Below are positions 2,099 through 54,700 of a stretch of 64,000 nt of DNA, piece after piece. The position numbers were made by a program, and so were the translations under genes. Every line of letters begins with the position of its first letter. The first letter of the stretch is position 1. Under the pieces are notes generated by a model. It was not told the origin of the DNA, searched no databases, and saw only the letters and a program-made list of their open reading frames with translations. Origin of the DNA: an uncultured Mycoplasma sp. (GTDB lineage: Bacteria > Bacillota_I > Bacilli_A > RF39 > UBA660); assembly GCA_902493595.1 (NCBI GenBank), contig CABUPU010000004.1:9958-73957 (forward strand), in the 5' to 3' direction.

Positions 2099-2265
2099 AA
2101 ACTATTTCACCTCATTAAATACAATGTTTTTCTCGTAAACTTACATCATATTAATTATATCACGTATAATGTTAAACATAAAGATTTTATAACTATGCTA
2201 AAGGTGTATCAAAAATTGCTTAATAGTTCTAAAGCCCTTTAATATAAACAAAAATGAAAGTTTTA

Positions 2266-2294
2266 GTTCTCTTCAGGGGGCATGCTCTCTTCAG
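2266..2294. repeat. Left copy (internally duplicated) of the CCCCCTGAAGAG(AGCAT) motif
   Basis: Plus strand reads GTTCTCTTCAGGGGG-C-ATGCTCTCTTCAG. It shares TGCTCTCTTCAGGGGG with 14458-14473. Confidence 0.7.
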
Positions 2295-2379
2295 TTAGAA
2301 GAGGCCAAATTGTGTTAAACCCTTTAAATACGGGCCTTTTTATATTGGCATAAACCGTCATTTACCGTGGTTTTTAGTA

Positions 2380-2406
2380 TTTTTTGTACCTAAATTGTAC
2401 CTAAAA
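2380..2406. repeat. 27-bp exact direct repeat, left copy (TTTTTTGTACCTAAATTGTACCTAAAA)
   Basis: Identical 27-mer at 14362-14388 in the same orientation. It is internally a tandem of the 11-bp unit TGTACCTAAAT/TGTACCTAAAA. Confidence 0.85.
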
Positions 2407-2432
2407 AAGACAGTAGTTTTATTTCCACTGCC
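2403..2432 (-). terminator. Terminator of the 886-aa/118-aa operon
   Basis: Minus strand reads GGCAGUGG-aaauaaaa-CUACUGUC (8 bp, two G-U pairs) followed by UUUUUU. The U-run overlaps the end of the 27-bp repeat. Confidence 0.5.
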
Positions 2433-2479
2433 TTCTCGGATAATTTGATTATACCATTTTTATTGATTAATATCAATCG

Positions 2480-2836
2480 TTAAAAAGATCTGCTTCTATT
2501 AAAGATATATCCTACCAATATGCATGAGGCTACATATAAAACTATAAACATAATTATAAATACTGTTATGTTAGATATTAGATATCCTAATATTGTAATT
2601 AGTGCTGTAACATAACAATAACTTATTAAATAGCCAAAGCTTCCAAATGCAGGTTCATCTACTCCTTTGGTGTATCCACATCCAGTTAGTATATATGCAC
2701 AGGAATGCAAGATAGTACCACCAATAAATATGTTAAATAAGTCAGCATATACTTCACTACCTATTATATTTATATAAGGATTTGGTAGAACAAACTGTCT
2801 TATTAATGCACTAATCAAATGAATAAACTTATACAT
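2480..2836 (-). CDS. Small polytopic membrane protein (about 4 TM), partner of the 886-aa protein
   Basis: 118-aa ORF whose ATG lies 2 nt after the stop of the upstream ORF. The RBS GAAGGAGA sits inside the upstream coding end. Hydrophobic throughout. Confidence 0.6.
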   Translation of the reverse strand: MYKFIHLISALIRQFVLPNPYINIIGSEVYADLFNIFIGGTILHSCAYILTGCGYTKGVDEPAFGSFGYLISYCYVTALITILGYLISNITVFIIMFIVLYVASCILVGYIFNRSRSF

Positions 2837-2838
2837 TA

Positions 2839-5499
2839 TTATTCATCTCCTTCTTTTATAACAAACTTGTAGCATTTTGAATTTGGGATTTTTCTTATTG
2901 AAGGAGATATAAATAATTTAAAAACACAATTTCCTTTTAGATATTCTATTTGATCTTCAACACTTCCTTTTTCCTCTAACCATTTAGTGTTCTTTTGTAT
3001 TTCATTTCTTGCACTTGTATTTGTTGAACAGTCTATAAGGTCATAATATACTCCATTTAAATAAGTACCTGACTCTTTTATATCTGGTTCATACATATCA
3101 ACCCTTGGTAAATCTTTTTTCTTAATTAAATAGATATCTCTTGCTTTAGGTATTTTTATTAAATCAATCTTTCTATTATTTATATCGATAGTTTTATCGT
3201 CAAAATTATTTAAGTTTAAAATTCGCCAATTGGATGGGCTTGTAATAATTACATATTTTTCCTTTTCGTTCAAGCCATCTATATATTTTACAAAGTCTTC
3301 CTTAATAACCTCTGCTATACTATCTAATTTTTTTAAATAATCTTTTGAAATTCCAGTAAGTATAGCACGTCCATAATCCTTGGAAATATTATCTAATCCA
3401 TAAACCTCATCAAAAAATAATTCTCTTCCCATTATTTGATTAATTCCAAATAATCTTTTATTTCTTTTATTAATAATTGAATACTTATTATTATCTTTTA
3501 AATATGATGTCAATTCATTTCCATTTTCTATCTCCTTAAAAATAATTTTTTTGAAACTCTCAGTTTTTTCTGAACTTATTTTGTTATTCTTAATATATTC
3601 TGCTTCAGCTTTTTTACATTCTTCCACTATTTTTTCTAAAACACTTATTAAAGATGAATTGTTGAAATTAACATCTAATACTGCCTCTAGCTTACTTTTC
3701 TCATCTGACTTCACTATATCTAATAATCTTTCATAAAAATATTTATTATCCTTTGAAATCAATTCAGAATTTATATCATCTGAATTTGAATATCCTATAC
3801 CAAACACATAAATGAATTCTTTCAAAATAAATATGTCGTCAACATGAATTCCGGACCATGAATTCCTATATTCTTTATTCTCAAATCTAAAATCAAAATG
3901 ATAATATACATCATGGACATTAGAAATAAAATTGTAATATTTTTTAAAATATTCTATAGCTTCATTTTGACTATAAAAATCTACAAAATTACTCTTAACA
4001 TAATTTATTAGCTTCTTTAATTCATCTTTATCTTCTTCATTAAATACATCCTTATTTGATAGAATAATTAACCCATATATAAACCCAAACGAAAATTGAA
4101 TCTTAATAATATCGTATGAATCAGGTTCACCATCAATAAATCCATTATAATCAAAAATAACATTATTAAATAAATCATTAATAGACTTGAATTCTTTTTT
4201 TATTATTAAATCAAACAAGAAATTCATTAAATTTGATAGTAAAACATCATAATATATAGAATCACTATTCTCTTTTATAGAATAGTAATCATACCTAAAT
4301 AATGAATTAGTAAAATCATATGATGTCTTTCTAACATCATCAGTAATTTCTAACTGTTCAGTATAACAATAATAAATATAGTTACTTAAAAACCTGTATC
4401 TTTCATAATCCTCATTAGAATAAGCTAAACTAGCTAACGTGCTTAAAAAATTTGCTAACTCTTTATTTTTATGTATATCTTTATAATATTTAATATATAT
4501 TTTTCTTATATATTCATATGAAATATCTAATAAAGATCTCATATTATTTTTATATAAAAAATTATAAAAATTAAATAATCTACTATCAGAATCAAAATTA
4601 TCATCTATATTAGTTTCTGCTAAAGAAAATAAATCATTAATTATCAAGTTAATTTCATTATCAAGATATGGAATACTATCATTTAATAAACATGAATTTC
4701 TTATACTGTCTTCATAATTTATGATTTCGTTTTTGCAATAAGCAACTGTCACACCTCTATTTATTTTTTCTCCACCTTTTAGTTTAAGAATTATTAAAGG
4801 ATCTATATATACTATAAGTTCTTTTCTTCTTCTGTTTTCTTCTTCTATCTTATCTATTATCGCTTGTAATGATCTACAACTATATGATTTAAAGATTCCA
4901 CTTTTATTTGCTTTTATTGGAATATAATCATCAATATTTTCTACATCAAAAGAAAAATATTTTTTATTGTCTTTCACAAATTTATCTATAGATTCATTTT
5001 TCAATTTCTTTTTTGAATTTTTAATGTTTCTATTATGAATTTCTATAAGTCTTTTTTCAATATATTTATCATATTCAGCAGAAAAATAGTCACTATCAGT
5101 ATTAAGTTTGATAGCTATTCCAAAAAGTTTAATTGTCAACCAAATAGAACGACAAATAAAAATATTTAATAACAATTCTACTACAAAAAATAAAATTTTG
5201 AATAAATCTGCACATTCTTTATTATATGGTATTATCTCTTTTATGATGCATAGTGATAATATAAGGATTGAAAAAGTCATGATACCTTTCATTCTTGTTT
5301 TTTCTAAAACAAATCTTTTGTGTGTTTCAACCTTCTTATCATTCATCGTCTCTGCAATAAATATTATAATTGCTACTAATACTCCGACTATCCCAACAAA
5401 CGCATCTATTCTCACACTTCCATTTAAAGGTTCAAAAATATTTACGTTCATCCAAATAATAAAATTATAAACATTTTTCATAAATTCTTCTATATTCAT
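2839..5499 (-). CDS. Large uncharacterised membrane-anchored protein (3-4 N-terminal TM helices plus ~750 aa soluble region)
   Basis: 886-aa uninterrupted ORF in a very AT-rich context, with RBS GGAGGT 6 nt upstream. TM segments lie at residues ~29-132. I see no Walker A, nuclease, protease, TIR, SIR2 or HEPN motif. The post-TM segment vaguely recalls DUF2254-type proteins (from memory only). Confidence 0.8.
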   Translation of the reverse strand: MNIEEFMKNVYNFIIWMNVNIFEPLNGSVRIDAFVGIVGVLVAIIIFIAETMNDKKVETHKRFVLEKTRMKGIMTFSILILSLCIIKEIIPYNKECADLFKILFFVVELLLNIFICRSIWLTIKLFGIAIKLNTDSDYFSAEYDKYIEKRLIEIHNRNIKNSKKKLKNESIDKFVKDNKKYFSFDVENIDDYIPIKANKSGIFKSYSCRSLQAIIDKIEEENRRRKELIVYIDPLIILKLKGGEKINRGVTVAYCKNEIINYEDSIRNSCLLNDSIPYLDNEINLIINDLFSLAETNIDDNFDSDSRLFNFYNFLYKNNMRSLLDISYEYIRKIYIKYYKDIHKNKELANFLSTLASLAYSNEDYERYRFLSNYIYYCYTEQLEITDDVRKTSYDFTNSLFRYDYYSIKENSDSIYYDVLLSNLMNFLFDLIIKKEFKSINDLFNNVIFDYNGFIDGEPDSYDIIKIQFSFGFIYGLIILSNKDVFNEEDKDELKKLINYVKSNFVDFYSQNEAIEYFKKYYNFISNVHDVYYHFDFRFENKEYRNSWSGIHVDDIFILKEFIYVFGIGYSNSDDINSELISKDNKYFYERLLDIVKSDEKSKLEAVLDVNFNNSSLISVLEKIVEECKKAEAEYIKNNKISSEKTESFKKIIFKEIENGNELTSYLKDNNKYSIINKRNKRLFGINQIMGRELFFDEVYGLDNISKDYGRAILTGISKDYLKKLDSIAEVIKEDFVKYIDGLNEKEKYVIITSPSNWRILNLNNFDDKTIDINNRKIDLIKIPKARDIYLIKKKDLPRVDMYEPDIKESGTYLNGVYYDLIDCSTNTSARNEIQKNTKWLEEKGSVEDQIEYLKGNCVFKLFISPSIRKIPNSKCYKFVIKEGDE

Positions 5500-5569
5500 C
5501 TTTTACCTCCAATCAAAAAAAGAGCATATTCCATCTTAAAAATGAAACACACTCTATTATTTAATATAT

Positions 5570-5578
5570 ATTATAGCA
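5570..5578 (-). promoter_or_regulatory. Extended -10 (TGCTATAAT) for the 886-aa/118-aa operon
   Basis: Sequence match in the 137-nt gap between the hsdS stop and the 886-aa ORF start. Confidence 0.4.
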
Positions 5579-5636
5579 TTTTTTTATAATGTTTTAAATA
5601 ATTTTATATATTATTATGTAGTATATAGTTTTTTTA

Positions 5637-7082
5637 TTAAACTTGATTTATAAGATTAATTAGGCTATTAACTCTATTTAATATTTTTTCTTGTTCTTCA
5701 AATGGAGGCAAAGGAATATACATATTTTTTAAAATATCAAATGGTGGAATATTCTTTATAGCTGTTCCCTTACCTTTTTCATTTGCCTCTTTTTTTAATA
5801 CATAATCAAAATATAATAAGAAGAAGTCTCTATAATTATTATCAAATAAAGTGATTTTCATAAGTGCTTGATTAATAATACCTACTCTAGCTTCTTTTGG
5901 CATTACATATGTTTCGCCAATTGTTCCAGCACATGATACTATTATATCATTTGGTTCTACAGAAAAAGATTTCATAGATTCATATTTTTTTCTAGAAATA
6001 TAATAATCTCCCAATGTGTAATCTTTTTTTATTGCATTTTGCTGCTCATAAACTTTAATTGCATCTTCACTATATGGAATAAACATAGATTTAGTTAAAG
6101 AACTTCCAAAAGGGCCTTTTTTATATATACCTATATTACCCAATCTAACCCATATCCAATTTTGAGGAATAGAATATGGAACATTATTTGAATTTATTTC
6201 CATTACTTTTTTATCTTTCTTTAAATTATGTCCATTTCTAAATTCACTTTCTATTTTAAAAACATCAATTTGTTTATCTAATGGATTATTCTTTATTAAT
6301 TCACCGTGAATAGCTTTATCAAATATAAGTATTTTCAGTTTTTCTTTTAATTTTTGAACTCTACCAATACTCTTTTCCAATTCATTTATTAATTCAAATG
6401 TTTTATCAATCTTTTCACATAATTCTTTTTGATATTCAATATCAGGAATGCAAATTGGAGTATTAATAATTATTTCTCGAGATATATTAGGTTGTGCTCC
6501 TCCAATGCCCGCATTAATAAAATAATCCCTTAATGATAATAAATAATAAAATAAATATTTTGATTCTATACCATAATATATATTACAAGAACAACATGCT
6601 TGATTAGTAGTTAATTCAATTTCTGATATTCCTAGTTTTCCAATTGTTGCACCATACATAGCAATCATAACATCACCGGGATGAACAAATTTTAAAGAAC
6701 ACTCTTTTAATGCTTTTTCAGTAATTTTTTCTTCAGTATTATTTATATATCCATCATTGAGTTCACCAGTTTTAAGCCATGCTATAGTACCATTATTATA
6801 ATATTCTTCATTACTTCTCAATGGAGTTGCACCTGCACCCCAACTTCCAATATTTCCTAGTCTATCCCATACCCAATTTGTTGGAGATTTATATATTTTT
6901 TCATCATCAGTTATATCTTCATCTAATTTATCTTTCTTTATTTTTTTCTGATTAATGAGATCATTTCTTATTCCATCATATTTTTCTTTAATATCTGAAG
7001 ATAGCTGTTTTCCATCATTTGGTAATAATTGACCACTAAAGGCCATCTGAAGAATCTTTTTTCTTAGCTTACTTACATTCAT
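5637..7082 (-). CDS. hsdS: Type I restriction-modification specificity subunit
   Basis: 481 aa with two similar halves (NWVWDRLGNIGSW.. and NWIWVRLGNIGIY..) separated by coiled-coil spacers, typical of the two target-recognition domains (TRDs). Stop and start are coupled to hsdM. Confidence 0.9.
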   Translation of the reverse strand: MNVSKLRKKILQMAFSGQLLPNDGKQLSSDIKEKYDGIRNDLINQKKIKKDKLDEDITDDEKIYKSPTNWVWDRLGNIGSWGAGATPLRSNEEYYNNGTIAWLKTGELNDGYINNTEEKITEKALKECSLKFVHPGDVMIAMYGATIGKLGISEIELTTNQACCSCNIYYGIESKYLFYYLLSLRDYFINAGIGGAQPNISREIIINTPICIPDIEYQKELCEKIDKTFELINELEKSIGRVQKLKEKLKILIFDKAIHGELIKNNPLDKQIDVFKIESEFRNGHNLKKDKKVMEINSNNVPYSIPQNWIWVRLGNIGIYKKGPFGSSLTKSMFIPYSEDAIKVYEQQNAIKKDYTLGDYYISRKKYESMKSFSVEPNDIIVSCAGTIGETYVMPKEARVGIINQALMKITLFDNNYRDFFLLYFDYVLKKEANEKGKGTAIKNIPPFDILKNMYIPLPPFEEQEKILNRVNSLINLINQV

Positions 7083-7084
7083 AT

Positions 7085-8560
7085 TTATTCTCCATTAATC
7101 AACAAATCTAACTTTGATACAATATTTGTAATATTATTTGTTTCTTTTTGTATTTCACTAAATAATTCTTCAATTGTAATATCATCTAAATCATCATCAT
7201 CAGTTATCCATTTTATATCTAAATTAAACTTATTATTCTTAATGTCATCATATGAAAATTTTCTCCATCTTCCATTTGGATTTTCTTCTGACCAAGTTTC
7301 AGTTCTATCATGAATATTGTCTGGATTAAAACACTTAACAAAATCGTCTAAATCTTTATTTTTTATTGGCTTTTTCTTTAAAGTAAAATGCATCCCAGCT
7401 CTTAAATCATATATCCAAACTTCTTTTGTTTGTATTTCTTTAGACGCAGGTTTATTATCAAAAAATACGACATTTGCTTTCACTCCAGGTTTATAAAATA
7501 TGCCTGTTGGCAATCTTAAAATTGTGTGTAAATTGGTTGTTTCCATTAGTTTTTTTCTAATAATCAATCCTCCTGATCCTTCTTCAAATAATACATTATC
7601 AGGTAATACAACAGCTGCTTTTCCATTAATCTTTAACAAAGTATGAATATGTTGAACAAAATTAAATTGTTTATTAGAACTTGTAGTCCAAAAATCTTGT
7701 CTATTATAAACTAAATCCTCATCTTCTTGTTCTCCATCTTCATTTGTTATTGTTAAGGATGCTTTCTTACCAAATGGAGGATTAGTTAAAACATAGTCAA
7801 ATCTTTCACCTGGATCGGATAATAACGCATCATTTCTTGTTATTGGTGATTTACCATCAATGTCACTTATATTATGCATAAATAAATTCATTAAACATAA
7901 TCTATACGTACTTTGAACTATTTCCCATCCTCTAAAGGTACTATATTTTAAGAAATTTTTATCCTTTTCATTTAAATCATAATTATCCTCAATAAACTCT
8001 TTTGATAATAATAGAAAACCACCAGAACCACAACATGGATCTACTATGGTTTTATTTGGTTCAGGTCTTATGCATCTTACCATTGCATCAATAACTGGAC
8101 GAGGTGTGAAGTATTGACCTGCTCCACTTTTTGTATCTTCTGCAATTTTTTGAAGTAATCCTTCATAAATATCACCTTTAACATCTGAAGATAATGCAGT
8201 CCATGTTTCGCCGTCGATCATAGTAATTATTTTAGATAGCATTGCAGGAGTAGATATCTTATTTATTGCTCCTGAATATATTTCCCTTAACATACCATCT
8301 TGTTCTGATAATGACTCTAAAATGCCATTATAATATTTAAATAATTCTGCACCTTTTTTTGATTTTAATTCATCCCAACTGCAATTATCAGGTAACTTAA
8401 TTCCTTTTTCAAATGGTGGTTTATTATATTCATCTATCATTTTTAAAAATAATAAATATGTTAGTTGTTCAAGATAATCTTGATTGGAAACACCATCATT
8501 CATTAGGACAGTTGCCATGCTCCATACTTTTTTATTAATTGTTGAAGTTCCCTCACTCAT
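7085..8560 (-). CDS. hsdM: Type I R-M N6-adenine DNA methyltransferase subunit
   Basis: Motif I DPCCGSGGFL, motif IV LTNPPFG, and an HsdM N-terminal-like region. Confidence 0.95.
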   Translation of the reverse strand: MSEGTSTINKKVWSMATVLMNDGVSNQDYLEQLTYLLFLKMIDEYNKPPFEKGIKLPDNCSWDELKSKKGAELFKYYNGILESLSEQDGMLREIYSGAINKISTPAMLSKIITMIDGETWTALSSDVKGDIYEGLLQKIAEDTKSGAGQYFTPRPVIDAMVRCIRPEPNKTIVDPCCGSGGFLLLSKEFIEDNYDLNEKDKNFLKYSTFRGWEIVQSTYRLCLMNLFMHNISDIDGKSPITRNDALLSDPGERFDYVLTNPPFGKKASLTITNEDGEQEDEDLVYNRQDFWTTSSNKQFNFVQHIHTLLKINGKAAVVLPDNVLFEEGSGGLIIRKKLMETTNLHTILRLPTGIFYKPGVKANVVFFDNKPASKEIQTKEVWIYDLRAGMHFTLKKKPIKNKDLDDFVKCFNPDNIHDRTETWSEENPNGRWRKFSYDDIKNNKFNLDIKWITDDDDLDDITIEELFSEIQKETNNITNIVSKLDLLINGE

Positions 8561-8573
8561 TTTTTAAAACCTC

Positions 8574-11330
8574 CTAAGCTAATAAAGCATAATTTAATTC
8601 AGCTAATATTTCTCTAAATTTTGCACCAAACAATTGGAAAAATTTAGCTAATCCACCCTTATTATTAAAAGGTGTTAATTCTAAATCGCTTTCTTTTATA
8701 TTCATTGAAATAGCAATATGATCTTTTATCATTCTTAACCATTCCATTTGTTCTTCACTGAATTCTCCATATCCTTCGTTTTGTTTAAAGCACCACTCTT
8801 TAAATTTAATATTAACAGTTGTATTAAATGATTTTAATTCAGTTGTTTGCTTTAATTCAAATTTAATTAAAGATATGATATCAGCAAGTTTGTCTTCTAC
8901 TCTTGTAGATACTTTATCACCATAAATAGTTGAATAAGCTTCCCATAATTTAGTATTTGATAGAAAATACGGAGCACTCATCATTTTTTCATATAATTCT
9001 TCAACCATTTTATAAGTTAATGGTCTATTTTTATAACTTTGATTATAAATAATATTTAATGCATCTATTGAATCTTTATTTTCTTCAATAAATTCTGCAA
9101 ATGTTTTAATTATTTCTTTGGCTTTTTCTTCTTTGTTTGTATCCCAGCCAGAAAACTCAATTGAATCTATATTTTCATTATCAATAATTTGATAATGCTT
9201 ATCTCTCGCTTCAAGAATAAATTTTCTAACTTCTGGATTATATATTGGTTTAATAGCTAAATCAATAATCTCTTGTTTTGTTGATTCATATTTACTATTT
9301 TCATCTGAAGATTCAATTTTTAAATTAATATAATCATCATCAAATGCATTTAAAATATTCTTCGCAACATCTATTATTGCTACACCGTCAGTTAATTTTT
9401 TAAATTCTTCTTTATCTTCTGTTTTAAGCACTTTATCCAAATTAATAAATCTATTTGCTATTGATGTCAATGTATCTTCATCTTTAGCACCAAATGCAAC
9501 GCTATTAAGTAAGTTTTTAAGTGATTCACTTGGTTTTCTTTCTAATTGTCTAGAAGTTGTTTTTTGTGATGATGTAACACCTACAGCATCTACAACTATA
9601 AATCCTAATTTTCTTTCTGTTGCTGATGGTGATACTTTTTTTAAATTATCTAGATCTAAAGTTCTTGTAGCTCTACCTAGCATTTGTTCAAAGTAATTCT
9701 TGCTTCTTACATCTCTCATGAAAATTAAACATTCAATAGGTTTAACATCTGTTCCTGTAGCAATCATATCTACTGTAACAGCAATTCTTGGATAATAATC
9801 ATTTCTAAATGCACTTAAAATTGATTTTGGATCTTCATCAGAGCCATAAGTAATTTTTTTACAAAATTCATTACTTTCACCGAATTCTTCTCTTATAATA
9901 TCTACGATATCATTAGCGTGACTATCTGTTTTAGCAAATACTAATGTTTTAGGAACTTCTTTTCTTCCTGGAAACATTTCTGTCAATACCTTTGACTTAA
10001 ATTCTTTAATAACATTTCTAATTTGCGATGGATTAACGATATCATTATCAAGTTGACTTGCTGAATAAACAACATCTTCATCTAATTGAGACCATCTTTT
10101 TTCTTTAGATAATCTTTCTCTTGTTTCAACAACTTGTTTTAATATACAAGCACCATGTTTTGTGATATTTGTTTCTATTAAATATGTTCCCTGTCTTCCA
10201 ACATTAACATCATCTAAAACAGCCTGTTCATGAGAATACTCTGATACGACATTTTCATTAAAGAAAGCAAATGTCCTTTGATCTGGAGTAGCTGTTAATC
10301 CAACTAAAAATGCATCAAAATAGTCTAATACTTGTTGCCATACATTATATATTGATCTATGACATTCATCGATAATTACAACATCAAAGAAATCTATTGG
10401 ATATTTTTTGTTATAAGATACTTCTTTTGGTCTTTCATTTTTAAATGACTTTTCTGATAATGATGATTCTTCATCTCTTTCATCCAATTCAAATCCTCTC
10501 AGAATTGAATACATTCTTTGAATTGTACTAATACATACATGAGTGTCATTTGGAATATATGATGAATTAAGTCTTTTAACATTGTATAATTCTCCAAATA
10601 ATCTACTATCATCATTTGGTCTATATTTTCTAAATTCTTCTTCAGCTTGTTCACCTAAATTTTTAGTATCAACTAAGAAAAGAATTCTTTTTGCCTTTGC
10701 ATATTTTAACAATCTATATACGGAAGTTATAGCAGTAAATGTTTTACCAGCACCTGTTGCCATTTGAATTAAAGCTCTAGGTTTATTTTCAGAGAATGAT
10801 TTTTCCAAATTAACAATAGCATTAACTTGACAATCTCTAAATCCATTTACATCAAGTTCTGGAAATTGTTTCATTCTATTTCTTAAAGTATCATTATCTT
10901 TTAGTAATTGTTCTAATTCTTCTGGTGTATGAAACATAAATATTTCTCTTGATCTTGCCTTTTCATCTTTGTAGTCACAAAATCTAATTATAATGTTTGT
11001 ACATTCATAAGCAAATCTGATTTCAGGTTGTTCTTTTAATCCTCTTAATCCACTTTTAATATATCTTAAAGATTGTTCCGCTACAACACCTAGCGTAGTT
11101 CCTCTTTCTTCTTTTTTAGCTTCAATAACACCAACAGGTTTACCTGCTATAAATATTAAATAATCTACAGGTCCACTATTGGTTTGTGCCTCTCTTAAAA
11201 TAACACCTAAAGATGCTGTAGGATTAAACGAATCAATATTTTGAATTACAAAACCTGCTTCTCTTAATTTTTTATCAATATCTATTCTTGCTTTTGCTTC
11301 GGGATTTAAATTTAAATCTTCTAATTCCAT
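8574..11330 (-). CDS. hsdR: Type I restriction endonuclease subunit R (EcoEI-type C-terminal domain)
   Basis: PD-(D/E)xK region VDYLIF..GVIEAKKE, Walker A QMATGAGKTF, DEAH-like IIDECHRS, and an EcoEI_R_C-like tail. The track ORF starts at 11357, but the ATG at 11330 has RBS AAGAGGT upstream, so I prefer 11330. Confidence 0.93.
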   Translation of the reverse strand: MELEDLNLNPEAKARIDIDKKLREAGFVIQNIDSFNPTASLGVILREAQTNSGPVDYLIFIAGKPVGVIEAKKEERGTTLGVVAEQSLRYIKSGLRGLKEQPEIRFAYECTNIIIRFCDYKDEKARSREIFMFHTPEELEQLLKDNDTLRNRMKQFPELDVNGFRDCQVNAIVNLEKSFSENKPRALIQMATGAGKTFTAITSVYRLLKYAKAKRILFLVDTKNLGEQAEEEFRKYRPNDDSRLFGELYNVKRLNSSYIPNDTHVCISTIQRMYSILRGFELDERDEESSLSEKSFKNERPKEVSYNKKYPIDFFDVVIIDECHRSIYNVWQQVLDYFDAFLVGLTATPDQRTFAFFNENVVSEYSHEQAVLDDVNVGRQGTYLIETNITKHGACILKQVVETRERLSKEKRWSQLDEDVVYSASQLDNDIVNPSQIRNVIKEFKSKVLTEMFPGRKEVPKTLVFAKTDSHANDIVDIIREEFGESNEFCKKITYGSDEDPKSILSAFRNDYYPRIAVTVDMIATGTDVKPIECLIFMRDVRSKNYFEQMLGRATRTLDLDNLKKVSPSATERKLGFIVVDAVGVTSSQKTTSRQLERKPSESLKNLLNSVAFGAKDEDTLTSIANRFINLDKVLKTEDKEEFKKLTDGVAIIDVAKNILNAFDDDYINLKIESSDENSKYESTKQEIIDLAIKPIYNPEVRKFILEARDKHYQIIDNENIDSIEFSGWDTNKEEKAKEIIKTFAEFIEENKDSIDALNIIYNQSYKNRPLTYKMVEELYEKMMSAPYFLSNTKLWEAYSTIYGDKVSTRVEDKLADIISLIKFELKQTTELKSFNTTVNIKFKEWCFKQNEGYGEFSEEQMEWLRMIKDHIAISMNIKESDLELTPFNNKGGLAKFFQLFGAKFREILAELNYALLA

Positions 11331-11504
11331 ACTACTACCTCTTACTTCCCATTTCATCTCACATATTCAATAATAATTATAACATACAATTCGACAAATT
11401 TTGATATTTTTCGACCAATTCGTACCAGAAATTACCAAATTGTATTAATAATCTTGACTATTTTTTAATTTTAAGTGATTAATACAAGGAATTGGAGGAA
11501 TTGT

Positions 11505-14116: not shown

Positions 14117-14237
14117 AATCCAACTCCTCATAAGTATTATACCGTGATCTTATACTAATCATATCCTACCGTTTGCGGTATAATATTTTTGTAATCATAC
14201 GGATATTATCAATTTTGTCCGTATTAATGGTAAAAAG

Positions 14238-14343
14238 TCCATTGAGAATTTTTGCCACTTTTGCCACTTTTTCTCAATGAGATTTAAAATAAATAAAAAA
14301 TCCATTGAAGATTTTTGCCACTTTCGGCATTTTTTCTCAATGA
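14238..14343. repeat. Two tandem 43-bp imperfect palindromic units
   Basis: Units at 14238-14280 and 14301-14343. Arms CATTGAGAA/TTCTCAATG surround a ~22-nt spacer carrying TTTTGCCAC twice. On the minus strand each unit is a hairpin followed by a U-run. Confidence 0.75.
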
Positions 14344-14361: not shown

Positions 14362-14388
14362 TTTTTTGTACCTAAATTGTACCTAAAA
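14362..14388. repeat. 27-bp exact direct repeat, right copy
   Basis: Identical to 2380-2406. Confidence 0.85.
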
Positions 14389-16220: not shown

Positions 16221-16326
16221 CAAAGTACGCATTTTTTGAAATATAATTTTGCCTAACTTATGCTAAAAAATCACTATTTTTTAGTGAAAACTGTCAAACA
16301 AAAAAATCTCTTTCGAGATTTTAATT
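16221..16326. repeat. ~106-bp direct repeat, left copy (3' UTR/terminator module)
   Basis: About 95% identical to 18852-18958 (1 indel and ~4 substitutions). Contains the terminator AAATCTC-tttc-GAGATTT and ends exactly at the dpnB stop codon. Confidence 0.85.
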
Positions 16327-17190
16327 TAACACTTGTTTTAAAGTGCCATTTTCCAAATCATTAATGTTATACATTGTTTCAAGTTCATTAAATGTTTCTT
16401 TAAGATTATTCTTTGCATCATGCCAACCTAAGCCATCAGTAATCCATATAAACGTTATTCCATCAATTTCCTTTACTTTTTTTGCTAGCATTTCATAACT
16501 TCTTGCAATTTCATTTAATTTAGAACCACTACTTGCATAAAAATTTGTTTCAATTAAATATATTTGTTTAGGAGTTTTTATAACAAAATCAAATCTTTTT
16601 GTGGAAACATTATTTCCAGATAAAGAACTTAAATCAATATTCCATCTTTTCTCAATATCATTTAAGTACATTTCTTTAAAGTAATTTACATCTTTAACAA
16701 AACCAGATTCCTTAATATATTTTTCTACTAAATCTTCCATTAAATGACCACCACGATTTTTTCTACCATTAGAATCAAGACCAACTTCAATTCCTAAAAC
16801 ATAATCATATAAATTATTTATAATATGATTTTGTAATAAATCAAATAGACCACTTTCTTGCATAAACCTAACATAGTCATCCATTGAATAAACCATTTTT
16901 TTAAAGTCAAATAAATATTCATTAATTTCATCCTTAACAAATATTTCAGTAGAACGAACCGCTAAAAGAAGTGGTATACATTCTAAAGTTTCAGGATATT
17001 TAAGCATTATGTTTTTAAAAGCTTCTTCAATTGTTTTACTACCAATTAATGAATTTAAAATATTAAGTTCTACTTTTACTTTATCAACATTTTTATATAT
17101 TTTTTTAAAATCAGCATAATAACTATAATTAGATATACTAGACTTAAAGTTTTTAATCCATTCATTAAAATCTCTTTTCATTTTCATCAC
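16321..17190 (-). CDS. dpnB: Type II restriction endonuclease, DpnII/MboI family (GATC)
   Basis: YVLGIEVGLDSNGRKNRGG, FDFVIKT..YLIETNFY..GSKLNEIARSY and FIWITDGLGW match my memory of R.DpnII/R.MboI. Confidence 0.9.
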   Translation of the reverse strand: MMKMKRDFNEWIKNFKSSISNYSYYADFKKIYKNVDKVKVELNILNSLIGSKTIEEAFKNIMLKYPETLECIPLLLAVRSTEIFVKDEINEYLFDFKKMVYSMDDYVRFMQESGLFDLLQNHIINNLYDYVLGIEVGLDSNGRKNRGGHLMEDLVEKYIKESGFVKDVNYFKEMYLNDIEKRWNIDLSSLSGNNVSTKRFDFVIKTPKQIYLIETNFYASSGSKLNEIARSYEMLAKKVKEIDGITFIWITDGLGWHDAKNNLKETFNELETMYNINDLENGTLKQVLN

Positions 17191-17938
17191 TTTCCTTTCT
17201 TTTAATTGTTAAATCTAAATATTCTTTTTCTTTTTCAATACCGATATACCTTCTTTTTAATTTGCTGGCAACAATACCAGTTGTGCCACTTCCATTAAAA
17301 GGATCTAATATTAAATCATTTTCATTAGTTGAAGCAAGTATAATTTTTTCTAATAATTCTATTGGTTTTTGAGTGGGATGTTTTCCACACTTTTTTTCAC
17401 TTGGTTTGGTAAGTGAGGTTTCCCAAACATCTTTCATTTGTTTATTATTATTAAGTTTTTTCATAATGTCATAATTAAATTTATATTTAACATTCTTTAT
17501 GTCCTTTTTGGCCCATAAAATAGTTTCTGTCGAATGAACAAAACATTTACAACTTATGTTTGGTGGTGGATTTAATTTTTTCCAAGTAATATTATTAATT
17601 ATTTTAAATCCATTTTCCTCAAGGGCCATACCTATAGAATAAATGTTATGCATAGTTCCACTTATCCAAATTGTTCCATCATCTTTTAAAACATCTTTGC
17701 ATAATTTTATCCATTTTTTGTTAAAATTGTGTTTTTCTTTTAAAGTAATAGATTTATCCCAATCGCCTTTATTAACACTAACTATTTTTCCACCACTACA
17801 TGTAATACCATTACTAGATAAAAAATATGGGGGATCAGCAAATATTACATCAATACTTTTAGGTTCTATATTTTTAAGTATTTTTAAAGAATCACCTTTA
17901 TATAATGTAAAATTATCTTTTTCATAGTATGGTTTCAC
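17165..17938 (-). CDS. dpnA: DNA adenine methyltransferase, DpnA-like (N6_N4 MTase family)
   Basis: IFADPPYF (motif IV) and DPFNGSGTTG (motif I), in beta-class order. Confidence 0.88.
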   Translation of the reverse strand: MKPYYEKDNFTLYKGDSLKILKNIEPKSIDVIFADPPYFLSSNGITCSGGKIVSVNKGDWDKSITLKEKHNFNKKWIKLCKDVLKDDGTIWISGTMHNIYSIGMALEENGFKIINNITWKKLNPPPNISCKCFVHSTETILWAKKDIKNVKYKFNYDIMKKLNNNKQMKDVWETSLTKPSEKKCGKHPTQKPIELLEKIILASTNENDLILDPFNGSGTTGIVASKLKRRYIGIEKEKEYLDLTIKRKESDENEKRF

Positions 17939-17947
17939 TTGGCCTCC

Positions 17948-18778
17948 TTAATAATTTGTAATAATAACTTCCTCTACTTTACCTCTTTTATTTCCATTTG
18001 CGTTAATACTTCTTTTAGCATCGATTACATGTATATTAAAACCTATATATAATTCATTTATTAAAGAAGTATTATGATTTGATAACATTACTTTTACACC
18101 TTTATTATCTAACTTTTTAAATACACTTGCAAGTCTTTTTTGTTCCTCTTTATCAAAACCAGTATCTGTATAACTATTAAATGTATGTGTATCTGAATCA
18201 TATGGAGGATCAATATATACAAAATCTCCTTCTTTAGCACTTTCTAAAGAAGTTTCAAAATCCTCACATAAAACTTTAATATCATTCATACTAAGATAAT
18301 TACTTACAGTTATTAAATTATTTCCATCATAAGTATTAACTTTATCTTTTTTTCCAAAAGGAACATTAAATTCATTTTTGCTATTAACTCTATAAAGTCC
18401 ATTAAAACACGCTTTATTTAAATAAATAGTTCTTGCAGCTCTAGTATAGTCAGATAATCTATTAAATGTTTTTTTATTTCTATCTTTATTTCTCATTTCA
18501 TAATAAAATTCTTCATTATGTTTAGCTTCAAAACTATTTAATGAGGCACATAACTTTTTAAACTTATCTTCATCTTTCAAACAACTATAAACATTCATAA
18601 GTTCTTTATTAGAATCATTTATAACAGCTTTTTTTGGTGATAATTCAAAAAGAAGTGCTCCTCCCCCTACAAAAGGTTCATAATATGTATCAAAACTTTC
18701 TGGAACATATTTTTTTAGTTCATTAATTATTTGTCTTTTTCCACCAGCCCATTTTACAAATGGTTTTCCTTTAATCAT
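17948..18778 (-). CDS. dpnM: Dam-type GATC DNA adenine methyltransferase, DpnM-like
   Basis: FVKWAGGKRQ, FVGGGALLF and YIDPPY motifs. Confidence 0.9.
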   Translation of the reverse strand: MIKGKPFVKWAGGKRQIINELKKYVPESFDTYYEPFVGGGALLFELSPKKAVINDSNKELMNVYSCLKDEDKFKKLCASLNSFEAKHNEEFYYEMRNKDRNKKTFNRLSDYTRAARTIYLNKACFNGLYRVNSKNEFNVPFGKKDKVNTYDGNNLITVSNYLSMNDIKVLCEDFETSLESAKEGDFVYIDPPYDSDTHTFNSYTDTGFDKEEQKRLASVFKKLDNKGVKVMLSNHNTSLINELYIGFNIHVIDAKRSINANGNKRGKVEEVIITNY

Positions 18779-18851: not shown

Positions 18852-18958
18852 CAAAGTACGCATTTTTTGAAATATAATTTTTGCCTAACTTATGCTGAAA
18901 AAACACTATTTTTTAGTGCAAACTGTCAAACAAAAAAATCTCTTTCGAGATTTTAATT
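18852..18958. repeat. ~106-bp direct repeat, right copy
   Basis: See 16221-16326. It ends at the stop codon of the cotD-like gene. Confidence 0.85.
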
Positions 18959-20388: not shown

Positions 20389-20454
20389 ACTAAATCTCTC
20401 CTTAATTAAAAAATAAAAATAATATCTTAATAAGCCATGTTCTGTACCATTACT

Positions 20455-20762
20455 GGTGACAAACATTTATCTATGTACAAAGTACATCTAGTCTTAGGTT
20501 CGTTTTCCCTTGACCAGCTCCCCTACCAAAATTTGGGTTTCTCACTCGCGGGGTTTACCACGTTCCACTTCTTTTATTTCTAAAAGACTCGTCTCTTTGG
20601 CACTTTTATACCTAATCATTTCATTTTCAGAAATTTTCGGAGCCGTTAGCATATGCTACCTTAAGTTATTTATTCCTTAAGCACGAACATATTATCCATC
20701 ACAGGATAAGTGAGCATGGACTTTCCTCAATAAAACTAAAAGTCTTACAGCGTTTGTCTAAA
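20455..20762 (-). ncRNA. rnpB: RNase P RNA (bacterial, compact Firmicutes/type B-like)
   Basis: Minus strand contains GAGGAAAGTCCATGCTC (the universally conserved CR-I/P4 strand), GTGGAACGTGGTAAACCCCGCGAGTGAGAAACCC, and ACGAACCTAAGAC (the P4 3' strand). Candidate P1 pairing is GACAAAC (20752-20758) with GTTTGTC (20458-20464). Ends are approximate. Confidence 0.85.
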
Positions 20763-20766
20763 GATA

Positions 20767-28314: not shown

Positions 28315-29253
28315 TTATTTAATACTTTTTGTTAATGAAAGTTTTTGTACATTATTTTTATTATTTTCTAACTGAATACTTGGATTATAGATAAGCTTAT
28401 CATCCTCAAACCAAGAACCACACACAATTCCGCTTCTATGTATTATTGCAACATTAAGATATGTTGGTCTACGATTTTGAATATGAGTTGCTAGTTTATC
28501 ACCTACACAAATACGAACTGGTATGCCTTGATAATTAGCATTTAAGTATACATTTCGTCTTCTTATATCAGTTTCATTTGATATATTTAGTTTTTTTAGT
28601 GTGTAATTAAAAACATCATCTGTTTCTTTATTGCCAGGTAAAAGACGATTTAAATATAGTGGAATTCCTAATCTAGAATATTCATCGATATCAAATGATT
28701 CATCAATTGTAACTCTTAAGCAAAGTTTTTCTCCAAAAAGAATTTTAGCCTGTTCAATAGTCAAAATTGGTTTTGTGGCTTTGAATATTTTTTTGTTTAT
28801 TTCTTCGTTAACAGAATTGCGATGTAAATTTATATGATTAATTTTAGTTATACCACTAAAATAATCTTCGTTAAGTGCTGCACCATTAGTATTCCAGTTT
28901 ATATATGAATCGGGAAAGTAAGCTTTTATTAAATCTATTAAACTATTAAAATCTTTAGAATTAAGTGTCCCACCAGTAATAGCAACATTTTTTATATTAG
29001 GAAACTCCCTTAATACTTTTTCGCATATTTTCAGAAAATTTGCATTATCTATTGAATTTTTTCTAAGATATGTATCAATACAATATTCACAATTTGCATA
29101 ACAAGGTTCTGGTAAATTTATTACTATTGAATTAACAAAATCTAAACAAGGAATGCCAAAAACTTCACGAAAATGTGCATTAAAAGTTTCTATTCCTAGT
29201 TCTTTTTGAGCCGCTAATAATTCTTCATTTGCCTGATAATCTGAATCAATCAT
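28315..29253 (-). CDS. Orphan radical SAM enzyme, subfamily unknown
   Basis: CxxxCxxC cluster CYANCEYC and a GGE-like motif VAITGGTLN. No SPASM-type extra Cys cluster seen. Extended -10 TGATATAAT upstream. Confidence 0.8.
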   Translation of the reverse strand: MIDSDYQANEELLAAQKELGIETFNAHFREVFGIPCLDFVNSIVINLPEPCYANCEYCIDTYLRKNSIDNANFLKICEKVLREFPNIKNVAITGGTLNSKDFNSLIDLIKAYFPDSYINWNTNGAALNEDYFSGITKINHINLHRNSVNEEINKKIFKATKPILTIEQAKILFGEKLCLRVTIDESFDIDEYSRLGIPLYLNRLLPGNKETDDVFNYTLKKLNISNETDIRRRNVYLNANYQGIPVRICVGDKLATHIQNRRPTYLNVAIIHRSGIVCGSWFEDDKLIYNPSIQLENNKNNVQKLSLTKSIK

Positions 29254-29364
29254 AAAAATGCCTACTTTTTATGAGATATTATATCATAATTTTTTATAAA
29301 ATAAATAAATAAATATTTAATCAAAATAAAACTCGAACTAAAAAGTTCGAGTTAGGTATTTTAT

Positions 29365-29452
29365 TGGTGCTTGTAATCGGGGTCGAACCGATACTTTCTT
29401 TTGGAAAAATAGATTTTGAGTCTATCGCGTCTACCAATTCCGCCATACAAGC
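29365..29452 (-). tRNA. tRNA-Leu (anticodon CAA)
   Basis: Manual cloverleaf: acceptor GCTTGTA/TACAAGC, anticodon arm ATAGA-CTCAAAA-TCTAT, long variable arm, T arm ATCGG-TTCGACC-CCGAT, encoded CCA. A terminator hairpin follows. Confidence 0.9.
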
Positions 29453-35028: not shown

Positions 35029-35105
35029 GGCGGGGTATATCAACTGGCTAGATAGTTCGGTTCATACCCGAAATGTTGGGGGTTCGAGTCCCTCCCCCGC
35101 TACCA
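35029..35105 (+). tRNA. tRNA-Met (anticodon CAT; elongator or Ile2-lysidine type, not initiator-like)
   Basis: Manual cloverleaf: D arm TATC/GATA, anticodon arm TTCGG-TTCATAC-CCGAA, T arm GGGGG-TTCGAGT-CCCTC, encoded CCA, and a G1-U72 wobble. Two terminator hairpins follow. Confidence 0.88.
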
Positions 35106-51615: not shown

Positions 51616-51705
51616 TACCAAATCACTTAAGAAGGCGATTTGGTGCTAGTATCACACTAGTCAACCCCTTTTTATTCTTTGAGGCCCTAAAGGCCTCGTT
51701 TTTTT
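51616..51705 (+). ncRNA. Candidate small RNA D (paralogue of C)
   Basis: Hairpins ACCAAAUC..GAUUUGGU and CUAGU-aucac-ACUAG, the unpaired segment CAACCCCUUUUUAUUCUUU, and the terminator GAGGCC-cuaa-AGGCCUC followed by a U-run, convergent with the PFOR stop. Ends are approximate. Confidence 0.45.
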
Positions 51706-51720
51706 ATGAAAAAAAGAATA

Positions 51721-54700
51721 CTAATCAGTACTCTTTATTTTATTATAATAATTATATCTTTCTTTAGCATTATTAATTTGTATATTAAGAAGTTTATTTG
51801 CTAAAGAATTATCTTTTATTTTTAAAGCATTATATCTTACTTCATTATTTAAAAATTCTTCATACTTATCAAAATTAGGTTCTTTTGAATCAAGATATAG
51901 TTTATTATCTTTATATCTCATTAAAAGTGTATAACCACACTCTACTGCAAGTTTTTCTTCGTTAATTGAGTTACACATTCCACCCTTGATACCATGTTCT
52001 ATACAAGGACAATAACATATTACAATTGAGGGACCATTATGATTTTCTGCTTCAGTTAATGTTTTAATTGCTTGAACATTATTGGCTCCCAAACAAATTG
52101 ATCCAACATATACATTAGGGGCGCACATAGCAATTTTGAATAAATCTTTTTTACTAGTTTTCTTACCAAAATCTGCAAATTCAGCAACAGCACCAACTTT
52201 AGTTGATTTACTTGCTTGTCCTCCAGTATTTGAATAAACCTCTGTATCAAGAACTAAAATATTAATATTTTCATTTGAATGAAGAATATGATCTATTCCA
52301 TTATATCCTATATCATAAGCCCAACCATCACCACCAATAGCCCAAACACTTTTTTTAGGTATATATTCTTTTAAATCATATAATTCTTTTGGTAAAGTTA
52401 AATCATCCATATTTTTTACAAAATTATTTGTAATTTCATAATTATCAAAATTTAAAAGTAAATTTAAACAAGCATCTTTTTCTTTTTCAGAATAAGAATT
52501 AATAGAGTTAGAAATAATATTTTTTATTCTATTTCTTTTTTGCTTATATGATGTATAAATACCATAAGCAAATTCTGCATTATCTTCGAAAAGTGAATTT
52601 GCCCAAGGAACTAAATATGGTGTTGATGGAAAACTACCTCCGTAAATACTTGAACATCCTGTAGCATTAGCAATAACTAATTTTTCTCCAACAATTTGAG
52701 TTAATAATTTAATATATGGAGTTTCCCCACAACCAGCACAAGCGCCAGAAAATTCAAATAAAGGTTTTGTTAATGATATTCCTTTTATAGTGTTTTTTGG
52801 ATATAATGATGGATTTTCATATGTATTAAATAATTCATCCGTTGGAATAACATTTGTTTCTAAAGTAAGAGCTTTAGTAGGACAAACTCCTACGCATAAA
52901 CCACATCCAGTACAATCTTTATTACTAATACCTACAAAATAATTATATTCATCATTTCCTAAAAGAGGTTTACCAAGTGATTTATCTTTAGTAATAAATG
53001 GTCTTATTACACTATGAGGACAAACTATATTACATGCTCCACATTCAATACATTTATCTATATTCCATTTTGGAGTAAGCATAGAAACATCTCTTTTTTC
53101 ATATTTAGATAGTCCACATTTAACTCCACCATTACTAAACATTTTAACTTCACTTGTAGAAAGGTTTTCTCCTTTTCTATTATTTATTAAAGTATAAATA
53201 TCTTTTTCTTCATTTTCCTCTTTTGCAAAACTATCTATTATTTTTACATCTTTTATTTCATTTAATGATGCATTTATAGCATTAATATTATTATTAACAA
53301 CATCTTCACCTTTAGTCATAAAGGCCTTTTTAACGGAATTAACAACCATTTCTTTAGCATTTGGTACATTTAATAGATTAAGTATATTTACTTCCATAAT
53401 TTTGCTTATTTTGCCATTTAAATGATTTTCATAAGCAATCCTTTGTGCATTAATTATTTTTACATTTATATTTTTAGATATAATTTCTTTTTTTATAGAA
53501 CTACTTAAATAATCATTTAATTCTTTTTCATTTTTAATAGTATTTATTAAAAGGATTCCATTATCTTTTATACCAGAAAGCATATCATATCTTTCAAAGT
53601 AAACATCCTTTGTTACAACCACTAAAGTAGGACTAGTTACATAAAAAGGTGCATTAATACTATTATCTCCCATTCTTAAATGAGATATAGTTACTCCACC
53701 ACTTTTTTTAGAATCATATTCAAAATAACCTTCAACATATTTTCCTAAACTTTCATGTAATAATGTAAGCATATTTTTCGAGGCACTTACCATTCCATCT
53801 GAACCAAAACCATATATTTTAAATTCTTCATAATTATTAGATAATTTATAATCAGTTTTTGGTAAACTTAAATGAGTTAAATCATCATTTATACCAATTG
53901 TAAAACTATTTTGAGGTTTACTTTCTAAACTATCATAAACACTTTTTATATCACTAGGACTAGTATTTTTACTAGATAGTCCATATCTTCCTCCGACAAT
54001 CTCAATATTTTTATCTTTTAACGAAGATAATACATCTAAATAAAGTGGTTCACCAATACTTCCAGCTTCTTTAGTCCTATCTAATACAGCAATTTTTTGT
54101 ACGCTTTTAGGAAGTACTTGCTCTAAATATTTTTTACTAAATGGTCTATATAAATGAACCTCAATTAAGCCATAATCATTATTACCATTTTTTATTTCAT
54201 TATCAATTACAAGTTTAATAGTGTCATTTACACTACCCATTGCAATAATTATATATTTAGCATTATCACTTCCATAGTAATTAAATGGTTTATAACTAGT
54301 TCCCATTATTTCATTAATGTTAGTCATATATTCATTAACAATATCTGGCATTTTATCATATAATTCATTTCTACTTTCAGTTATTTGAAAATATACATCC
54401 TCAGTTTGACTTGTTCCATAATTTAAATCTGAAAGTAATGCTCTTTTCTTAAAACTTTCTAAAGCATTTTTATCTACTAAAGGAAGTAGTTTTTCTTCGG
54501 GTAATTCTTTTATTGTATTAAGTTCATGACTTGTTCTAAAACCATCAAAAAAGTGTATAAAAGGAAGACTTCCCTTTATCGCAGACAAATGTGCTACTGC
54601 CGCAAGGTTTTGAGCATCATAAACATTACTACTTGCAAGCATGCAGCATCCTGTCATTCTCGCAGAATATATATCACTATGATCACCAAATATTGAAAGA

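Follow-up and report, generated by a model that had tools for sequence, protein, structure and literature searches.

A candidate defence gene for a membrane-anchored protein with a predicted HK97 capsid fold, located behind a shared leader in a variable slot downstream of restriction-modification operons

Proteins of the HK97 fold form the shells of phage heads and of encapsulins, and the latter are a case in which this fold has been domesticated by cells (PMC8987985). Here we describe a gene for an 886-amino-acid (aa) protein, the large protein, whose C-terminal third is confidently predicted from structure models to have the same fold. The gene is found in an AT-rich stretch of 64,000 nucleotides (nt; G+C 25.5%) from an uncultured Mycoplasma sp. 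(contig CABUPU010000004.1), which we call the window, where it lies together with a gene for a 118-aa membrane protein, the small protein, directly behind a type I restriction-modification (R-M) operon. The large protein shares only 8–12% identity with the HK97-fold shell proteins to which it was compared (phage major capsids and encapsulins, among them the P. furiosus virus-like particle 2e0z, the T. maritima encapsulin 7k5w and HK97 gp5, 3qpr/1ohg). Unlike these free shell subunits it carries the fold at the end of a membrane-anchored polypeptide, and no scaffold, protease, portal, terminase or cargo genes are present near its gene. Assembly of a shell by the large protein is sterically doubtful.

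Several other described systems resemble parts of the locus. Ccm of SaPIbov5, CpmB, Sid and TcaP are soluble, satellite-encoded proteins that steal capsids for satellite DNA, and Ccm poisons head assembly by co-assembly; the large protein, in contrast, is membrane-anchored and chromosomal, and lies in an R-M-linked slot with no satellite genes around it. Capsid-sensing defence (CapRel-SJ46, Lit/Gol and some CBASS; see also bioRxiv 10.1101/2022.05.30.493996, 10.1101/2023.05.21.541620) is triggered by capsid protein or head assembly late in infection, as would be the case for the trigger proposed below, although those sensors are not capsid-fold proteins and have known enzymatic effectors (toxSAS, protease, CD-NTase), whereas the large protein has no recognisable enzymatic domain. 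Defence hotspots such as those of P2/P4, the E. coli immigration control region and PrrC in type Ic R-M operons likewise combine conserved anchors with alternative defence genes. The slot described here differs from them in that its left border is a conserved promoter and 16-bp hairpin leader, found across at least 17 families and several anchors, and in that neither an integrase nor a phage context is present. ToxIN (a type III toxin-antitoxin system) and leader attenuators are alike in having a promoter, a short structured RNA with an intrinsic terminator and a potentially toxic open reading frame (ORF). The leader has no tandem RNA repeats, however, and a hairpin shared by unrelated proteins cannot act as an RNA antitoxin specific to one of them. 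In the literature, where our coverage of subscription journals was incomplete, no prior description of the protein architecture or of the shared leader was found. A defence gene in a defence hotspot is thus a familiar kind of finding; the architecture and the leader appear undescribed, and the chance of a mechanism new in principle is considerable.

The large gene occupies positions 2839..5499 on the minus strand. The AlphaFold2 model of its product, calculated from an alignment of 25 sequences, has a mean pLDDT of 84.6 and consists of long helices at residues 2-133, assigned to the membrane, a small alpha/beta part at ~180-295, a helical part at ~300-660 and a second alpha/beta part at 670-885. 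A Kyte-Doolittle scan found hydrophobic segments at residues 25-55, 68-92 and 95-128 (residues ~25-128 are encoded by 5116..5427, minus strand), so that hydropathy and model concur with the three to four N-terminal transmembrane (TM) helices proposed in the first-pass annotation of this DNA. Within the membrane region G35, A42, I45, F46 and E49 are near-invariant.

The ~750 residues behind the TM helices had been described in that annotation as mostly helical-looking and without a recognisable signature, and the capsid fold at their end was overlooked. The predicted HK97-fold (capsid/encapsulin-like) domain spans residues ~670-886, within the coding region of residues 640-886 at 2842..3582 (minus strand). 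It begins with a beta-hairpin (672-690), followed by a 26-residue "spine" helix (701-726) and then by beta-rich A/P-like parts with three short helices. All the hallmarks of the fold could be recognised, namely the E-loop hairpin, the long spine helix with the P-domain sheet and the A-domain, and the order of the elements fits the HK97 topology when read from the secondary structure, as opposed to a computed superposition. When the model was compared by Foldseek with predicted viral structures, major capsid or head proteins were ranked at the top with E of about 3e-3 to 0.1 and a probability of ~1.0. Relatives of the capsid fold were also listed: HK97 gp5, the capsid protein of a capsid-forming phage-inducible chromosomal island, a gene transfer agent capsid, the floors of herpesvirus capsids and the SaPIbov5 capsid-protein homologue Ccm. 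The domain is not a free-standing shell subunit; it is fused behind ~640 residues that include the TM helices, and its genomic neighbours are R-M and toxin-antitoxin genes.

Sequence searches showed that the large protein belongs to a real, rare and unnamed family. A word-indexed search of 5.8 billion proteins gave 56 clusters, from 98% down to 32% identity, none with a name or a Pfam domain. Among 1.84 billion representatives, 274 proteins matched a profile of 25 of these sequences at E <= 1e-3, none of them annotated. Members of the family are full length between 98% and about 30% identity. Among the 274 are relatives of 1000-1100 aa from Candidate Phyla Radiation (CPR) bacteria, Ignavibacteria and Exiguobacterium, all annotated as "hypothetical", which align best over the C-terminal ~270 residues and likewise possess an N-terminal hydrophobic region. 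The closest genome records are "Mycoplasma sp. CAG:956" and metagenome-assembled genomes (MAGs) of uncultured gut Bacilli and Clostridia. By tblastn no homologue was detected in 50,697 phage records or in 72,556 plasmid records, and the leader pattern described below gave no match in viral contigs, so that a prophage or plasmid origin is not supported.

The first-pass annotation had called both proteins uncharacterised, and this was borne out: neither had a match in Pfam, NCBIfam or PADLOC-DB 2.0 (in PADLOC, 0 families at E <= 1). A distant member of the family (L065) had no PADLOC match either, and Pfam scans of ten distant relatives of 700-1145 aa were empty. For the large protein itself, Pfam at E <= 0.1 returned nothing beyond one sub-threshold match to CusS. 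The resemblance to DUF2254 proteins that had been proposed for the segment following the TM helices therefore fell away, and membership of that family was rejected. At one locus (L020:181-3057) the large gene is split into an N-terminal fragment (299-568) and a 746-aa ORF, while the leader and a 121-aa small partner are retained; this copy looks frameshifted or decaying.

We then inspected the neighbourhoods of the large-protein homologues, about 13 distinct contexts. In about 10 of the 13, R-M or other defence genes are immediately adjacent, which speaks for enrichment next to known defence genes in unrelated genomes, although this is a count of cases and not a formal genome-wide enrichment test. 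Homologues lie directly downstream, and on the same strand, of type I (three kinds), II, III and IV restriction genes in unrelated contigs and phyla. In the window the upstream genes are type I hsdR, hsdM and hsdS, and further homologues follow type I R-M genes in L036 and L106. A homologue with 88% identity follows type III Res and Mod (L002, L023, L091); one with 58% identity follows another type I operon, in the order M-S-x-R, beside Thoeris (L012); and one with 63% identity follows genes for a C5 methylase and for MutH-like, MazG-like and Schlafen-type helicase proteins (L014). Upstream of a 49% homologue are a D12 methylase and HNH_2, with AbiE and Mob nearby (L016/17). Even at 34–35% identity the homologues follow GmrSD and T5orf172 (L003/6, 34%), type I hsdR and YgjP (L004, 35%), or an EcoRI-like methylase, GmrSD_N-HNH and DUF4268 (L015, a Clostridia MAG, 34%). 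In a Pacebacteria (CPR) MAG (L109-111) the relative again stands behind an EcoRI-like methylase and GmrSD_N-HNH, at a distance of 8 nt. This trio of methylase, nuclease and large-superfamily member (L015:860-6726 and L109:7743-13159, also L110 and L111) hints, by its recurrence in Clostridia and CPR, at a functional link beyond co-location. The context in L008-11 (Fic/NUDIX/DUF2130) is less telling.

The window itself has the same layout. The type I operon (5637..11357, minus strand) consists of hsdR (8574..11357), hsdM (7085..8560) and hsdS (5637..7082), each identified by Pfam, and serves as the conserved "anchor" behind which the variable slot lies. Further upstream are genes for a HigB-like toxin and an HTH/M78 antitoxin. 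A gap of 137 nt separates hsdS from the large gene. The TAA of the large gene is at 2839-2841 and, 2 nt further on, the ATG of the small gene (2480..2836, minus strand; three to four TM segments) is at 2834-2836, with the ribosome-binding site (RBS) of the small gene within the final codons of the large gene. Both ORFs, the gap and the 2-nt spacing had been given in the first-pass annotation, and the coordinates confirm them. As the ORFs studied need no in-frame TGA, genetic code 11 fits.

The 137-nt gap contains the leader. A promoter scan found a promoter-like element at 5570..5598 (minus strand), with a weak -35 (TTTAAA, 5593-5598), a 17-nt spacer and the extended -10 TGCTATAAT (5570-5578). 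A GGAGG RBS, read from the sequence at 5507..5511 (minus strand), is placed 7 nt before the ATG and is kept in the leader alignment. Both this -10 and the RBS had been noted before and are present as described; a hairpin with a U-run located between them had been overlooked. The terminator scan and RNA folds identified it as AGAGTGTGTTTCATTTTTAAGATGGAATATGCTCT followed by T7 (5514..5555, minus strand; hairpin 5521-5555), a perfect 16-bp stem with a 3-nt loop (about -15 kcal/mol) that resembles an intrinsic terminator or attenuator. No second copy of the hairpin occurs in the window, and Rfam gave no family for the leader or anywhere in 2200-5700. Weak matches of the leader covariance model at 51689-51765 and 29235-29292 were dismissed as ordinary promoter/terminator look-alikes.

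Shuffled versions of this AT-rich DNA contain 32.8 +/- 5.4 promoter-like hexamers, so that the 38 observed are no enrichment, and the evidence for a leader promoter is hence its conservation across loci and not the match to a consensus. In 40 aligned leader copies with differing flanking genes, TGnTATAAT is near-invariant and stands at a fixed 13-15 nt from the hairpin. Alignment of upstream regions showed that the -10, hairpin, U-run and RBS are kept even between loci with different upstream genes and a protein identity of just 58%. A degenerate 35-nt hairpin pattern retrieved 78 metagenome loci (L022-L099) and 0 viral contigs; the leader was also noted in L100, L105 and L106, and the covariance model found 88 distinct sites across 88 sources (89 matches at E <= 0.001, one of which overlaps on the opposite strand).

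A transcript started from this -10 would have its 5' end about 7 nt ahead of the terminator-like hairpin. Possible roles of the leader are attenuation, by which a potentially toxic gene would be expressed at a low level or conditionally, stabilisation of the mRNA 5' end, or a function at the DNA level as homology arm or recognition site. Termination of the R-M operon may be a further task of the hairpin, which lies at a median of 29 nt from the R-M stop codon. We rejected the view that it is only an R-M terminator: there are copies behind genes outside R-M, and a conserved -10 precedes it. The same architecture of -10, hairpin and U-run, with a different sequence, occurs after the small gene at 2384-2462 and in L014, and before a CBASS operon in L021. 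In the window this second element has a near-consensus promoter (TTGATA, 17 nt, TG-TATAAT; 11/12 matches) at 2448-2476 (minus strand), between the stop codon of the small gene and the terminator hairpin at 2404-2437, and its transcripts would measure only ~45 nt; it may be a tiny small RNA or the leader of a lost cassette.

The leader is followed by a large-protein homologue in only about 7 of the 78 loci. The first ORFs behind it belong to at least 17 unrelated families and, in profile scans of family representatives, 12 of the 17 match known or candidate defence models. These are Shedu SduA, an OLD-family ATPase (NsnB/AriA/Old/GajA), an Avs2-like STAND NTPase, the KAP NTPase PDC-S49 (5.5e-51), the PDC-S53 helicase (9e-293), Upx, Thoeris ThsA (1e-76), Tmn (2e-33), PDC-M50A (two families), PDC-S58 and, as a weak match, a PifA-like P-loop protein. 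The other five are the large-protein family and four unannotated families of 293, 418, 454 and 248 aa, which occupy the same slot behind the same leader and are therefore candidate new defence genes by the same logic. The 293-298-aa family occurs at 21 loci (for example L082:9173-10066), the 418-aa family in L095:1498-2763, the 248-aa family in L069:356-1099 and the 454-aa family in L072:7405-8766, there followed by an OLD-like protein of 414 aa; none has a PADLOC or Pfam match. An 826-aa ORF family behind the leader (L041:3216-5693) also has no match in either collection and is likewise a candidate.

On the other side of the leader, 62 loci had enough upstream sequence to show the preceding gene, which in 43 of them is a same-strand R-M subunit, and one and the same anchor can carry different cassettes. 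The hsdR-M-S type of the window (98% hsdR identity) is followed here by the large and small genes and in L060 and L072, behind the same leader, by others. Behind the type III anchor the small gene is preceded either by the large gene or by one for a PifA-like 931-aa protein. Behind the L012-type hsdR we found Upx, the 293-aa protein with an Avs-like one, KAP, the 454-aa family, an Avs2-like protein with the small gene, and a 44%-identical member of the large-protein family. The module of the window is thus one allele of a variable defence slot, whose left edge is marked by the leader. In several contigs (L100-L106) only C-terminal hsdR fragments (EcoR124_C) are left upstream of the leader, from which it seems that the anchor can decay while leader and cassette persist.

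At the other end of the unit we found an intrinsic terminator at 2398..2437 (minus strand; hairpin 2404-2437 and U-run) with a fold z-score of -4.9, none of 200 shuffles folding as well; the earlier proposal of a terminator at 2403-2432 thus held, and this terminator is kept after the small gene in L023, L035, L059, L074 and L084. The sequence that follows it (AGGTACAATTTAGGTACAAAAATACTAAAAAACCACGGTAAATGACGGTTTATGCC...GGCCCGTATTTAAAGGG..., window 2300-2400, minus strand) is conserved downstream of cassettes differing in content and R-M anchor (L025, L053, L087 and L094 as well as the five loci just named), and on this comparison it is the conserved right border of the slot. A pairwise alignment also revealed a perfect 27-nt direct repeat, TTTTTTGTACCTAAATTGTACCTAAAA (repeat family D7), with a right copy at 2380..2406 and a left copy at 14362-14388. 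The two copies bound a 12-kb block with the toxin-antitoxin pair, the type I operon and the large/small module, as the first-pass annotation had said of a repeat-bounded block, and similarity around them stops at the 27 nt. The AGGTACAATTTAGGTAC motif of the repeat also follows cassettes at other loci. The repeats could be the att-like termini of a mobile island; among the block's ORFs of at least 90 aa, none was recognised as an integrase or transfer gene. Beside the left copy, two tandem 50-nt repeats (88% identical, 63-nt spacing) occupy 14231-14343.

Taken together, comparative genomics favours the defence role for which the first-pass annotation had put the locus forward, given the R-M adjacency and a leader common to 12 families that match defence models, and the large gene is probably an anti-phage defence gene. 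The best overall explanation, which we hold with slightly less assurance, is an interchangeable defence cassette consisting of a capsid-fold membrane protein, its own leader and a separate small accessory. Such a cassette would be one of many that alternate in the slot downstream of R-M operons in AT-rich gut Bacilli and Clostridia, where its extended -10 promoter and conserved hairpin/U-run would keep expression low or conditional, or would stabilise the mRNA. The large protein would be anchored in the membrane by its three to four N-terminal helices and would expose the helical middle part and the HK97-fold domain. Late in infection this domain could bind or co-assemble with capsid-assembly intermediates of the phage, with the result that either head assembly is poisoned or sequestered at the membrane, or oligomerisation of the membrane part leads to collapse of membrane integrity and infection is aborted. 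That the domain engages head-assembly intermediates at all is a tentative idea. A wider proposal is somewhat unlikely to hold in full: that the HK97 fold has been domesticated as a membrane-tethered decoy or sensor of phage head assembly ("capsid mimicry"), and that the large gene and at least 16 other defence families have a common cis-regulatory leader which gates expression and acts as a homology arm for cassette swapping.

Several observations weigh against this explanation. Sequence profiles do not tie the C-terminal domain to capsids (Pfam Phage_capsid and Linocin_M18 were unmatched, and a profile of the domain run against PDB sequences gave a best E of 0.15 with no capsid among the matches), so that the relationship is one at the level of the fold, and the fold assignment depends on AlphaFold models from shallow alignments of 25 and 18 sequences. 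The large protein showed no motif of a nuclease, NTPase or protease, and no effector activity was identified. The defence role is argued from guilt by association, and the surroundings of some homologues do not suggest defence: a polysaccharide locus (L013), MutS2/DUF350 in Exiguobacterium (L108) and pilin-like genes (L001). Were the C-terminal domain exposed to the outside, procapsids would be out of its reach. Nor does covariation in the leader hairpin have statistical support; 99.7% of the cells of the alignment are paired, but there is one double change, shuffles equal the score in 315 of 500 cases, and all the changes are one-sided G-U/A-U switches. Since the transition-only retrieval pattern allowed no other kind, the covariation is uninformative.

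The non-defence-looking contexts also speak for a different role, in which a domesticated capsid-fold membrane protein (an encapsulin-like scaffold, a surface or entry-exclusion factor, or an island addiction factor) rides a recombination hotspot. The perfect 27-nt repeats around the 12-kb block, which suggest a mobile island, are in line with it, and so is the precedent of the encapsulins (PMC8987985). However, 12 of the 17 families with the same leader and slot match defence models, and neither genes of cargo, protease, portal or terminase type nearby nor integrase or transfer genes among the ORFs of at least 90 aa in the block accompany the large gene, and we consider this role improbable.

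The small protein was looked at separately, because the first-pass annotation had taken the two genes for an obligate module. With 105 homologous clusters it outnumbers the large protein. Among L001-L020 the small gene accompanies the large one only in closer branches (L001, L002, L008-12, L014 and L020), and it is missing beside the homologues in L003-7, L013, L015 and L016-19. Homologues of the large protein that lack it include all those with 34–35% identity and the 49% and 61% branches. It also follows unrelated genes, namely those for the PifA-like 931-aa protein (about 90% identity between the small proteins), for an Avs2-like 1115-aa protein (71-74%) and for Shedu with a 234-aa ORF (89%), and a 34%-identical version follows OLD-family cassettes. 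In each case it is the last gene of the cassette, at a spacing of 1-9 nt and with its RBS in the final codons of whichever gene precedes it, and it would thus be co-translated as the last gene of several different cassettes. In L021:8001-16357 the gene for a 57%-identical small protein stands by itself; it has its own -10 and is flanked by murE and by a defence island that contains a CBASS operon (CD-NTase and Cap15), NERD, a MazG-like protein, a Schlafen-type helicase and a 1289-aa ORF. A gene that is missing beside many homologues, ends other cassettes and can stand alone is not a dedicated partner, and the idea of an obligate pair did not survive; from its distribution, the small protein is a portable accessory or has an independent small membrane function, possibly as a shared effector, an exclusion protein or a modulator. 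We rejected the view that the small gene is simply the conserved right flank of the hotspot, since cassettes behind one and the same hsdR anchor differ in whether they include it.

The constant place of the small gene behind unrelated large genes could also mean that the large protein is only a sensor and that the small protein is a holin-like membrane effector, which would serve PifA-like, Avs-like and Shedu-linked sensors too. The chance of this appears small: many large-protein homologues have no small gene, the small gene stands alone with its own promoter next to CBASS, the Shedu and OLD-family nuclease partners already possess effector activity, and the small protein has no PADLOC match. 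Least likely of all is a guard role, in which the large protein would monitor the R-M enzyme or anti-restriction factors and kill the cell when restriction is disabled, as PrrC guards EcoprrI; it would explain the position at the 3' end of R-M operons, and the same-strand position behind R-M genes does recur from CPR to Clostridia and in the 43 of 62 leader loci, but a single guard is hard to picture for partners that fall into six or more unrelated types (three families of type I besides types II, III and IV), the slot also hosts the self-sufficient Shedu, Thoeris ThsA and Avs, and some homologues have no R-M neighbour.

Elsewhere, the window resembles ordinary chromosome and contains a class B RNase P RNA (20426-20765) and two tRNAs (29368-29452 and 35029-35102). 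A 95-nt direct repeat (89% identical; 16232-16326 and 18864-18958) flanks a gene cluster at 16321..18778, which is another possible repeat-bounded cassette. The translations of its ORFs of 289, 257 and 276 aa resemble two DNA methyltransferases and one endonuclease, which would amount to a second, type II-like R-M system.

If the proposed explanation is true, the large protein would be the first case known to us of a capsid-fold domain in a cellular, membrane-anchored immunity protein, and would represent a third fate of the HK97 fold beside virions and encapsulins. It would suggest that bacteria can turn a copy of a phage building block against the phages themselves. The leader is in addition a usable search handle: one 35-nt pattern led to 78 loci at which the downstream genes are mostly known defence systems, which makes the unannotated families behind it ready-made candidates. 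Should the wider proposal of capsid mimicry and a common leader also hold, the leader would be a sequence tag for new defence genes, such as the unannotated 293-, 418-, 454- and 248-aa families, and it would offer a testable model for how toxic defence genes are silenced and cassettes are swapped behind R-M operons in the poorly studied uncultured Bacilli of the gut.

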